Shown here: positions 14,115 to 17,477 of the stretch, in pieces | Layout: the number at the start of each line of letters is the position of its first letter | Position numbering within the stretch: position 1 is the stretch's first letter | Made by a program: the position numbers and the translations under genes | The notes under the pieces: generated by a model | Seen by the model: only the letters and a program-made list of their open reading frames with translations | What the model was told of the DNA's origin: nothing | Database searches by the model: none | Source: Anaerolineae bacterium | GTDB lineage: Bacteria; Chloroflexota; Anaerolineae; J102 | Direction: 5' to 3' | DNA: 64,000 nt | Assembly (NCBI GenBank): GCA_027002405.1 | Contig: JALWZT010000109.1 | Location: 4,624 to 68,623, forward strand

Positions 14115-17100
14115 ATGAGCGCATCAACCCGCAAACGAACCACAAAAATATCGACATCCTCCCAAACGGTATCCTCATCCAGTGAGGTATCGGGCTCTTT
14201 CCTTGATATCCCCGCGGTGGTGTATCTGCGGCTGAATTGGGAAAAGCTGGCCTGGATCGCGTTGGTTTTGCTCGCGTTCCTCCTGCGCGTCTACGACGTG
14301 GGCGCGCGCACCATGAGTCATGATGAAAGCCTGCATACCACCTACAGCTACAATCTGTACAATGGCGTTGGCTTTCGGCATGATCCGCTCATGCACGGGC
14401 CGCTGCTTTTCCATCTCACCGCGCTCAGTTATTTCATCTTCGGCCCCAGTGATTTTTCGGCCCGCTTTCCGGTGGTCCTTTTGGGCACAGGCGTGGTAGC
14501 CATGATGTGGTGGGCCCGGTCCTGGCTGGGGAAGCTGGGCGCGTTCCTCACCGCGGTCATGTTCACCTTATCCCCCTCCCTGCTCTTCCATAGCCGCTAT
14601 ATCCGCCATGATCTTTATGCCATCTTTTTCGCTCTGGCGGTGATTATCCTTATCTTCCGCTACATTCAGCAGGGGGAAATCCGGCTGCTGGTGGCCATGG
14701 CGGCCATGTTGGGGCTGTTGTATACCACCAAGGAAGTGGCATTCATTTATGTCATCATCCTCATCAGCTATCTGGTTTTGGTGTTGCTGGGCCGCATCTT
14801 GATAGGGAACTGGCAGCAGAAAGGCTATAAATGGCTCTTCCTGGCCACGCTGGCCCTGGGAGGGTTGTTTTTGGTCTACCCCATGTATGAATCTATCCAC
14901 GCGCCTGTGGGGCAGGTCGTGCGAAGCTCCAGCCTGGGCATGCCCGTGTGGCCCATGCTCATCCTGGCCGTGGGGCTGCTGGGGGTTGCGTTCTGGCTTC
15001 TCTTCAAAGGCTTTGGCAGCGAAAAGGTCCATAAATGGCGGGAATTCGATGTGACGGTGTGGGTCGTCACCCTTTCCGGGCCGCTGTTCGCAGCCTTTTT
15101 CATCAAGATCTTCGGAGGCAACCCCTCCTCCATCCATTTCAATAACCCCCTGGCGCCCGATACGATGACCGCGGCGGTGGTTTTTGTGGTCATGTGGGCG
15201 GCTTTTACCCTACTGGGGGCATGGTGGGCCTCGGCCAAAGGCTATTTCCAGGCCTACCTAGGGGGGCTGGGATTGTACTACGGATTGATGCTGCTCTTTT
15301 TCACCACCTTTTTTACCAATGGGGGTGGTATAGCCACCGGCCTGGTGGGCGCGTTGGGCTATTGGCTTTCGCAGCAAGAAGTGGCCCGAGGCGGCCAACC
15401 CTGGTTCTATTATGTCATGCTGGTCCCCCTCTATGAATTCATTCCCATGCTGCTCAGCGCGGTAGCCACGGTGGGGGTGCTGGTACGCATCTTCCGCCGC
15501 CAGCCCGTCGATGCTTCGTTGACCGATGACGCGGCCGCAGGCCAATCGGTGCGAGACCTGTGGGTGCTTTATCTGGTATGGTGGATCGCGCTCACCTGGG
15601 GGGCTTACACCTGGGCCGGGGAGAAAATGCCCTGGCTGGTAACCCACTTTGCCACGCCCATGAGCATTCTGGCAGGGTGGTGGCTGGCCTGGAAGCTGAA
15701 AGCCATCCCCTGGCGTCGCGTTTGGGACCAGGGCGGTGTCTGGGTGCTGCTGGCGTCCCCCATCTGGCTGGTGGTCTTTTACGAAGTTCTGCGGCAAAAG
15801 CCATTCCAGGGGAAATCCCTGGAGGCCCTAAGCCAAACCATGGCCGCGTTGATGGGCGCGGTGGTGCTGATTTTGCTGGGGTGGTTTTTGTACCGCAAGA
15901 TGAAGGCGGTGGGTTGGACGCTGAGCGGCCGGCTGGTTTTATTGAGCCTGCTGGGGGTGCTGGCCCTCTTCTGGGTGCGCACATCCTTCCTGTTAACTTA
16001 TGTCAATTATGACTACCCCATCGAACCCCTGGTCTACGCCCACGGCACCCCTGACATCAAAATCGTGGTCCATGACCTGCAAGAGATCAGCCGTCGTACC
16101 GTGGGCGAAAACGCCCTGGCATTCGTTTACGACAATGAAACCACCTGGCCCTTTGAATGGTATTTCCGGGATTTCCCCAACAAAAAGTTCGTGGGGGCCA
16201 GCCTCACACGCGAGGCCCTGAAGGATGCGCCCGTGGTGCTTGTGGGCATCGAAAATGAGGGCAAAGCCAAGCCTTTCTTGGGAAAAAAGTATTATCGCAT
16301 TGAATACCGCCAGATCTGGTGGCCCAAAGAAACGTACAAGCAATTGGTGGATGGGGTGCCTCAGCCCGATGGCACCGTGCTCAAGGGGCTCCCCCTCCTG
16401 TGGCACTGGATGCGGGACCCCCATGCGCGCAAAGTTTTCTGGGATGTCGTCCTCTATCGCAAATACGAACAGCCTATTGCCGAATGGAGCCCCGCGGATC
16501 ATTTTGTCATGTTCATCCGCAAGGACATCGCGGCCCAGGTGTGGGACCTGACCACCCTGCCAGCTCTGGCCGAGGCCGAAAGCATCAGCGCGGACCCCTT
16601 CGAAAGCAAGTACATCGACCACCCTGCCATCCAACAGGTCGGGCAAGGGCAGCTTGCCACCCCGCGCAACATGGCTGTGGCTCCCGACGGCCGCGTCTAT
16701 GTGGCGGATACGGGAAATCATCGGATCGTGGTTTTCTCACCCGAAGGGGAAATGATCACCTCCTGGGGTGCCTTTGGTGCTGAGCCCGGGCAGTTCAATG
16801 AGCCTTGGGATGTGGCTGTGGGCCCCGATGGCAACATCTATGTGGCCGATACCTGGAATCATCGCGTCCAAAAGTTCTCGCCCGATGGGAAGTTTATCAC
16901 CATGTGGGGTGCGTTTGTTTCCACCGACGGCCAACTGGGGCAGATGGGGGTGTTCTGGGGCCCCCGGGCCATGGCCTTCACCCAGGATGGCCAACTGCTG
17001 GTCACCGACACCGGCAATAAACGAGTGCAAGTCTTCACCCCTGAAGGCCAACCGGTCACCCAATTTGGTGGCGCGGGGGTGGACGATGGGTATTTTGACG

Positions 17101-17477
17101 AGCCCGTGGGGATCGCGGTGGATGGCGATGGCAACATCTACGTGGCGGACACCTGGAACCAGCGCATCCAAAAATTCAGTCCCGACTTCCAGTTCCTCAA
17201 AGCCTGGTCCGTGCCCGGGTGGGAAGGCCAGGATATCCTGATGAAGCCTTATCTCACCGTGGATAAGAAAAACCGGGTGTATGCCACGGACCCCTCAGGC
17301 TGGCGGGTGCTGGTATGGGACGCGCAGGGCACGCCCCTGGCCGCGTGGGGTCAGTATGGTGTGGGACCGGGCGAGTTTGGCTATCTCAACGGCATCGCCA
17401 CCGGGGCCGATGATGGGTCCATCTGGGTGGCGGATGCGGACAACGGCCGGGTTATGAAGTTTGAACCCCTCCCCTAA
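14115..17477 (+). CDS. large membrane protein: N-terminal GT39/PMT/ArnT-like (TIGR03663-like) polytopic domain fused to C-terminal six-blade NHL-repeat beta-propeller
   Basis: MSHDESLHTTYSYNLYNG loop motif and >12 TM segments; NHL repeats YVADTGNHRIVVF, YVADTWNHRVQKF, LVTDTGNKRVQVF, YVADTWNQRIQKF, YATDPSGWRVLVW, WVADADNGRVMKF. Confidence 0.7.
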   Translation: MSASTRKRTTKISTSSQTVSSSSEVSGSFLDIPAVVYLRLNWEKLAWIALVLLAFLLRVYDVGARTMSHDESLHTTYSYNLYNGVGFRHDPLMHGPLLFHLTALSYFIFGPSDFSARFPVVLLGTGVVAMMWWARSWLGKLGAFLTAVMFTLSPSLLFHSRYIRHDLYAIFFALAVIILIFRYIQQGEIRLLVAMAAMLGLLYTTKEVAFIYVIILISYLVLVLLGRILIGNWQQKGYKWLFLATLALGGLFLVYPMYESIHAPVGQVVRSSSLGMPVWPMLILAVGLLGVAFWLLFKGFGSEKVHKWREFDVTVWVVTLSGPLFAAFFIKIFGGNPSSIHFNNPLAPDTMTAAVVFVVMWAAFTLLGAWWASAKGYFQAYLGGLGLYYGLMLLFFTTFFTNGGGIATGLVGALGYWLSQQEVARGGQPWFYYVMLVPLYEFIPMLLSAVATVGVLVRIFRRQPVDASLTDDAAAGQSVRDLWVLYLVWWIALTWGAYTWAGEKMPWLVTHFATPMSILAGWWLAWKLKAIPWRRVWDQGGVWVLLASPIWLVVFYEVLRQKPFQGKSLEALSQTMAALMGAVVLILLGWFLYRKMKAVGWTLSGRLVLLSLLGVLALFWVRTSFLLTYVNYDYPIEPLVYAHGTPDIKIVVHDLQEISRRTVGENALAFVYDNETTWPFEWYFRDFPNKKFVGASLTREALKDAPVVLVGIENEGKAKPFLGKKYYRIEYRQIWWPKETYKQLVDGVPQPDGTVLKGLPLLWHWMRDPHARKVFWDVVLYRKYEQPIAEWSPADHFVMFIRKDIAAQVWDLTTLPALAEAESISADPFESKYIDHPAIQQVGQGQLATPRNMAVAPDGRVYVADTGNHRIVVFSPEGEMITSWGAFGAEPGQFNEPWDVAVGPDGNIYVADTWNHRVQKFSPDGKFITMWGAFVSTDGQLGQMGVFWGPRAMAFTQDGQLLVTDTGNKRVQVFTPEGQPVTQFGGAGVDDGYFDEPVGIAVDGDGNIYVADTWNQRIQKFSPDFQFLKAWSVPGWEGQDILMKPYLTVDKKNRVYATDPSGWRVLVWDAQGTPLAAWGQYGVGPGEFGYLNGIATGADDGSIWVADADNGRVMKFEPLP

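Follow-up and report, generated by a model that had tools for sequence, protein, structure and literature searches.

We analysed a 64,000-nucleotide stretch of DNA from an Anaerolineae bacterium of the Chloroflexota (GCA_027002405.1, contig JALWZT010000109.1, positions 4,624 to 68,623; hereafter the window) and focused on the gene at 14115..17477 (+). The ORF list and translation give a single open reading frame (ORF) with an ATG start encoding 1120 amino acids (aa), exactly as in the initial annotation, which read the protein as a fusion of a GT39/PMT-like membrane domain and an NHL beta-propeller. This is no chance ORF, as there are more than 1263 homologs in databases. The named relatives are from metagenome-assembled genomes (MAGs) of Anaerolineae/Chloroflexota. 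A protein with 99% identity (P0001) is encoded in the MAG GCA_027013725.1, and two public metagenome assemblies encode a 99%-identical protein with the gene order unchanged. As noted earlier, the gene lies between a nucleoside ABC (ATP-binding cassette) operon and guaA. The operon is of the Bmp/PnrA type (7548-13924 (-); substrate-binding protein, two permeases and ABC ATPase) and is the divergent upstream neighbour; guaA (17632-19191 (-)) is convergent and downstream.

The anatomy of the protein was derived from an AlphaFold2 model of the whole protein that used 70 homologs (mean predicted local distance difference test score, pLDDT, 89.4; predicted template modelling score, pTM, 0.76) and from a second model of aa 1-835 (pTM 0.90). 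The cytoplasmic N-terminal tail (aa 1-41, 14115..14237 (+)) is disordered (pLDDT 43-74), rich in Ser/Thr and Lys/Arg (6 K/R in 44 residues) and little conserved, and alignments with homologs begin at about aa 25-30. It is followed by a GT-C fold (glycosyltransferase C) membrane domain (aa 42-630, 14238..16004 (+)) with 17 transmembrane (TM) helices in the model, in agreement with the more than 12 predicted in the initial annotation. The polytopic domain placed there in the N-terminal ~600 aa is real, but its size is ~630 aa, and a conserved domain of ~180 aa that precedes the propeller had been overlooked. This juxtamembrane alpha/beta middle domain (aa 631-811, 16005..16547 (+)) is compact, with pLDDT mostly 70-95. 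A flexible linker (aa 812-839, 16548..16631 (+); pLDDT <50 at aa 812-823) leads to an extracytoplasmic six-blade NHL beta-propeller (aa 840-1116, 16632..17462 (+)), assigned from Pfam NHL, Foldseek and topology.

Because the number of TM helices is odd and the N-terminus is inside, everything after aa 630 is placed outside. Lys and Arg make up 20 of 131 residues on loops assigned inside, versus 13 of 189 on loops assigned outside. All invariant motifs sit on the outside loops, which is the orientation expected of a GT-C enzyme.

A sequence search of the PDB with aa 1-640 returned no match at E<=10, so the GT-C fold was taken from the predicted structure. The membrane domain superimposes on solved GT-C enzymes. 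The best structural match is Pmt4 (25.3), followed by ALG12 (23.6), ArnT (22.6), AglB (22.4), STT3B (21.4), Pmt2 (20.9), ALG9 (19.5), AftA (18.3), Pmt1 (17.7) and PglB (16.1). PMT, ALG, ArnT and oligosaccharyltransferase enzymes score alike, and thus the fold alone says nothing about the type of acceptor. Structure prediction gives a GT-C-like N-terminal domain and confirms the NHL region, the two points on which the fusion had been proposed to depend. The label GT39/PMT-like was not sustained. The protein belongs to TIGR03663 of NCBIfam ("flippase activity-associated protein Agl23"; 224.1 bits versus a cut-off of 126.25). Pfam identified PMT_2 at aa 94-247 (E=1e-9) and, at E<=1, none of the GT39/PMT signatures PF02366, MIR and PMT_4TMC anywhere in the 1120 aa. 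Given this, and 17 rather than 11 TM helices, we rejected GT39/PMT membership. TIGR03663 proteins are characterised by an invariant DE dipeptide, the tripeptide HGP and a pair of Arg residues towards the N-terminus; D70-E71, H94-G95-P96, R117 and R135 (also R161 and R164) fit this pattern.

Invariance was judged over 70 homologs with 40-85% identity. The first extracytoplasmic loop (aa 60-112, 14292..14450 (+)), 53 residues long with two short helices in the model, contains H69-D70-E71-S72-x-H74 and H94-G95-P96 and is the putative catalytic site. The acidic loop-1 motif MSHDESLHTTY, to which the initial annotation had drawn attention, is at aa 67-77, and its H69, D70, E71, S72 and H74 are invariant. 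R117, R135, R161, R164 and E207 are invariant as well. The conserved outer loop after TM11 (aa 397-434, 15303..15416 (+); TTFFTNGGG...YW..QQEVARGGQPWFYY) contributes T397, T398, N402, G405, Y416, W417, Q420, R425, G426, Q428, P429 and Y432. Also invariant are E441 and the motif G502-E503-K504-M505-x-W507 in the outer loop after TM13 (15618..15635 (+)), which we used as a search pattern. The invariant Arg, Lys and His residues on the outer face are compatible with a sugar donor linked to a lipid phosphate. A DE motif in loop 1 is a catalytic hallmark of GT-C enzymes, and its mutation abolishes or strongly reduces Pmt activity (PMC8698208).

The six-blade NHL propeller recognized in the initial annotation is well supported. 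Pfam scored five NHL repeats (E=3.6e-48), and related six-blade propeller families also match at aa ~840-1116. The model has six blades of four beta-strands each (24 strands), and the first strand (840-842) completes blade 6. P850-R851, E896-P897-W898, P950-R951, E996-P997 and K1044-P1045 make up a conserved top face. A phmmer search of the PDB found the NHL domains of Thin (E=4e-83) and TRIM71 (E=2e-64), and Foldseek aligned the propeller with the six-bladed NHL structures of Thin/TRIM71 (TM-score 0.87-0.88). The mycobacterial PknD sensor domain (1rwl) is also similar (TM-score 0.78). Overall, the likeness to the NHL propellers of TRIM71/Thin/Brat and the PknD sensor consists of the six-blade NHL fold, at 22-33% identity and TM-scores of 0.78-0.88. 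Those domains bind RNA or serve as kinase sensors, whereas here the propeller is extracellular and fused to a predicted membrane glycosyltransferase. NHL domains more commonly bind proteins or other ligands. The middle domain has invariant E637, Y641-A642-H643, P646, W678-P679, W682-Y683 and W735-W736-P737. Searches with aa 628-835 yielded nothing in Pfam at E<=10 (single sequence) and nothing in the PDB below E=0.08 (9-sequence profile).

The fusion is present in several hundred Chloroflexota species genomes and is common in Anaerolineae. When one genome per GTDB species was scanned with the pattern, at least 600 stretches matched, of which 592 were confirmed by tblastn. Full-length identity and taxonomy were taken from the best 80 of at least 592 loci. 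All of these 80 are from Chloroflexota (Anaerolineales, Caldilineales, Thermoflexales and unclassified) and match over the full length at 34-59% identity. This survey had been called for in the initial annotation. An exhaustive HMMER search with aa 1-835 against 1.84 billion cluster representatives gave 4646 hits at E<=1e-3, of which 835 reached E<=1e-30; the relatives are 573-1996 aa in length. Among 38 representatives spanning those lengths, PMT_2 was found in all and NHL repeats in 33. Thus, the propeller fusion is the prevailing form of the subfamily rather than a one-off. Automated names in databases include "TIGR03663 family protein", "Agl23" and, wrongly, "PknD". One of the 38 has an FGE-sulfatase domain as well, and the relative P0202 (1996 aa) combines the GT-C core and NHL propeller with one or two C-terminal FGE-sulfatase (formylglycine-generating-enzyme-like) domains.

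Genomic context was evaluated by calling and clustering ORFs in 85 loci, with upstream gene order counted in the 77 loci that have at least 2 kb upstream. Two arrangements recur. In one of them, a paralog of ~600 aa is encoded immediately upstream on the same strand (32/77 loci, ~40%). One or two DUF2298 genes (TIGR03662 "Chlor_Arch_YYY", 490 bits) usually precede the paralog, and one or two PMT_2+PA14 genes often come after, so that arrays of up to six GT-C-like membrane proteins occur. Such same-strand arrays, within ~10 kb around the match, are found in many Anaerolineae (L004, L006-L009, L012, L013, L022, L023 and others). In L006, for instance, the ~600-aa paralog (8175-9947) is directly followed by the fusion (9944-13270). 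Their members are DUF2298 proteins of ~1550 aa and ~850 aa, the degenerate TIGR03663-like paralog of ~600 aa, the NHL fusion and one or two PMT_2+PA14 proteins. The short paralog scores 35 bits on TIGR03663; it retains E71, R117, R135 and R161 and has lost H69, D70, HGP and the TTFFTN loop. In a second arrangement, an extracytoplasmic function (ECF) sigma factor and a single-pass membrane protein are encoded directly upstream (~15/84 loci); alternatively, the gene lies between rluB and sucCD, with type-2 isopentenyl diphosphate isomerase and polyprenyl synthase genes downstream. An ECF sigma/anti-sigma pair is sometimes located within the array. Genes for GtrA occur within 10 kb in 10/84 related loci, with housekeeping genes between. 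We judged a GtrA/UXS link to be weak, given 10-15/84 loci, the opposite strand and intervening scpB and rluB.

We infer that the gene encodes a GT-C glycosyltransferase that acts outside the cytoplasm and takes its sugar from a polyprenyl-phosphate-linked donor, while the propeller binds either the acceptor or a partner; we place the probability of this reading at about 0.6. The 17-helix membrane domain would bind the polyprenyl-phosphate-linked sugar in the outer leaflet, where the invariant Arg/Lys/His residues may bind the donor phosphate. D70/E71 would be the catalytic or acceptor-activating pair, and the sugar would be transferred to an acceptor at the cell surface. The middle domain and propeller, outside the membrane on a flexible linker, most likely bind either the acceptor, which may be an envelope protein or a chain of glycan, or a protein partner. 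The PA14 domain binds carbohydrate, and its presence on neighbouring GT-C genes hints at glycan acceptors.

The role suggested for the propeller is argued by analogy with GT-C enzymes that carry other modules. TMTC1-4, TMEM260 and bacterial PMT_2+TPR proteins share the plan of a GT-C membrane domain followed by a non-cytoplasmic repeat module. In the eukaryotic GT-C O-mannosyltransferases TMTC1-4/TMEM260, this TPR module is thought to select the acceptor (PMC10214176). However, the TMTC/TMEM260 module is built of TPR helices, whereas the window protein has a beta-propeller and a novel alpha/beta domain and belongs to a different family (TIGR03663). EmbA/B/C, AftD and GT136 ORF12 have accessory domains with carbohydrate-binding module folds instead of an NHL propeller; EmbA-C, AftD and GT136 are GT-C enzymes with carbohydrate-binding modules (PMC11127046). 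We found no description of an NHL propeller on a GT-C enzyme in the literature searched. A bacterial PMT_2+TPR protein is encoded within the window itself (32018..35038 (-); 1006 aa, N-terminal PMT_2 and C-terminal TPR, TMTC-like). It is part of a polysaccharide cluster and adjoins a gene for a 665-aa TPR protein (30024-32021 (-)).

The initial annotation had proposed a GT-C transferase with its own recognition module. The GT-C fold and the outside propeller stand; substrate binding by the propeller is suggested by analogy. Several observations weigh against our proposal. The positive-inside bias is modest, and the NHL domain is given its role by analogy. In tblastn searches the 64-kb window had no match to the short paralog, DUF2298, PMT_2+PA14, the ECF sigma factor or GtrA, so that the GT-C partners seen at other loci are missing here (TIGR03662/DUF2298 is within 10 kb in 30/84 related loci). 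Neither a polyprenyl-phosphate sugar synthase nor GtrA is linked to the gene in the window. The GT2 genes at 28419-30001 are part of a distinct polysaccharide cluster, and the window thus lacks a linked three-component GtrA/GtrB/GT-C system. Finally, the sole characterised family member, Haloarcula hispanica Agl23, is reported to be a flippase (PMC11182771).

This last point underlies the main rival explanation, an Agl23-type flippase or scramblase for polyprenyl-phosphate-sugars or polyprenyl-diphosphate-oligosaccharides, in which the outside domains would only regulate or dock to other enzymes. It draws on the TIGR03663 assignment, which is above the cut-off, and on two experiments with H. 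hispanica Agl23: the protein complements yeast rft1-delta and, once purified, allows M5GN2-PP-Dol to be translocated in proteoliposomes (PMC11182771). The conserved machinery of the window protein, however, faces outside and is of the transferase type, and 490 conserved extracytoplasmic residues are hard to account for in a flippase. We also compared the protein with a haloarchaeal Agl23 (WP_013440783.1; 645 aa, encoded on Halogeometricum borinquense plasmid pHBOR02). That protein shares D70-E71, H94-G95-P96, R117, R135, R161, R164 and E207; it also has vestiges of the domain that follows the membrane part (LVY, W682, P737). It is only 22% identical to the window protein and lacks the propeller, the GEKM motif and the TTFFTN...RGGQPWYYY outer loop after TM11 (this loop is also missing in the short paralogs). 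A GtrA-family gene lies directly downstream of the gene for the haloarchaeal homolog. GtrA is the proposed flippase of three-component glycosylation systems, and its presence beside Agl23 fits awkwardly with Agl23 itself being the flippase. For these reasons we consider a flippase improbable. Flipping, the published Agl23 role (PMC11182771), is thus unlikely to be the main role here, although lipid scrambling by the lipid groove of a GT-C enzyme is conceivable as a secondary activity. On pHBOR02, the Agl23-annotated gene overlaps the start of the GtrA-family gene by 4 nt (ATGA-type; L086 5974-8345), and two GH18 chitinase-like genes are located upstream.

We are similarly doubtful that the protein is a strict bacterial protein O-mannosyltransferase, a GT39/PMT equivalent that modifies Ser/Thr of secreted proteins with the propeller in place of MIR. 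Yeast Pmt4 is the best structural match and Pmt2 and Pmt1 also score high, but ALG12, ArnT and AglB nearly equal Pmt4, and the fold is mute on the acceptor. In its loop-1 DE motif the protein agrees with PMTs (PMC8698208), and there is a PMT_2 match, along with weak precomputed PF02366 matches in several homologs. Pmt1/2/4 (GT39), on the other hand, carry PF02366, PMT_4TMC and the MIR beta-trefoil, none of which is found in the window protein, and have 11 TM helices versus 17. Their accessory domains are inside a loop, whereas those of the window protein are C-terminal. The PA14 domains encoded by neighbouring GT-C genes also hint at glycan acceptors. Least probable by far is an envelope sensor or scaffold, in which the propeller would detect ligands outside the cell, as the PknD sensor does, on a catalytically inactive GT-C-like anchor, possibly signalling to the ECF sigma/anti-sigma pair. 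The resemblance to the PknD sensor domain and the sigma factor arrangement at ~15/84 loci are consistent with this, but the pair is missing in this window, there is no cytoplasmic output domain (merely the 41-residue disordered tail), and the strict invariance of GT-C catalytic and phosphate-binding residues favours an active enzyme.

A broader but rather speculative possibility is that the propeller-bearing protein is the catalytic subunit of a Chloroflexota-specific membrane assembly line of five or six GT-C proteins. The others would be two DUF2298/TIGR03662 proteins, the degenerate ~600-aa paralog and one or two PMT_2+PA14 enzymes. Lacking the catalytic Asp, the paralog could pair with the propeller enzyme as Pmt1 does with Pmt2. 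What they build outside the single membrane might be a glycopolymer or glycoprotein coat of the envelope that is so far undescribed. The archaeal Agl23 family might then, in turn, consist of hexose-P-dolichol transferases instead of flippases.

The genes around the fusion in the window appear unrelated to its function. We rejected a functional tie to the nucleoside ABC operon, guaA or the polysaccharide cluster at 19.4-46.8 kb, because relatives with 34-63% identity do not retain these neighbours, which are shared with the 99%-identical contigs alone. The substrate-binding protein of the ABC operon (11705-13924 (-)) is 739 aa long, about twice the usual size in the Bmp/PnrA family, and has a tandem double Bmp/PnrA domain. 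The divergent intergenic region (13925..14114) has one sigma-70-like match (14019-14047 (+)), which is a mere candidate promoter, as the match count is not above that of shuffles. A 153-nt palindromic insertion (17476..17628), which is not part of the protein, lies exactly between the stop codons of the convergent GT-C and guaA genes and provides the TAA stop of the former. It forms one long hairpin (-66 kcal/mol, z = -7.8). Contigs L001 and L002, which are 99% identical, lack it, and an arm related to it is found upstream of guaA (19335-19351). The insertion looks like a small mobile palindromic element (similar to repetitive extragenic palindromic or miniature inverted-repeat transposable elements) and possibly acts as a two-way terminator. 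Rfam and tRNA scans of the whole window returned no match.

The polysaccharide cluster (19444-46845 (-)) is a large Wzx/Wzy-type locus, and its linkage to the GT-C gene is not conserved. We identified genes for UDP-GlcNAc 2-epimerase, several GT4 and GT2 glycosyltransferases, a methyltransferase and a Bac_transf initiating transferase. Also encoded are a 738-aa CbiA/ParA-type ATPase-domain protein (possibly a chain-length regulator or tyrosine kinase) and a 487-aa membrane-candidate protein without a family match. Further along the window, a toxin-antitoxin island (49500-56800) interrupts sugar-metabolism genes. It includes two PIN/Phd pairs that are nearly identical, together with DUF3368 PIN-like genes, in a duplication with a spacing of 3842 nt and 99% identity. 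Further members are a HepT/MNT pair and single genes similar to HicA and AbiEii.

GT-C enzymes build outer-face glycans in all domains of life, including N- and O-glycoproteins, arabinogalactan and lipid A modifications, and appended domains often set their choice of acceptor. The GT-C core, the NHL propeller, the design in which a GT-C domain is joined to an outside binding module, and the curated family model are already known. New here are the propeller and novel middle domain as such a module, their dominance across Anaerolineae, and the multi-GT-C array with its degenerate paralog. The finding establishes no new principle and is a solid but moderate lead. Anaerolineae are filamentous bacteria that are abundant in wastewater sludge and sediments, and to our knowledge their envelope chemistry is poorly characterised. 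In these organisms, the propeller fusion is dominant in a family with hundreds of sequence clusters. One archaeal experiment is the source of the name "flippase activity-associated protein Agl23" that thousands of these proteins now bear. Their invariant catalytic motif, which faces outward, points to transferases, so this is likely a misnaming, of relevance to the current debate over which proteins flip lipid-linked oligosaccharides.

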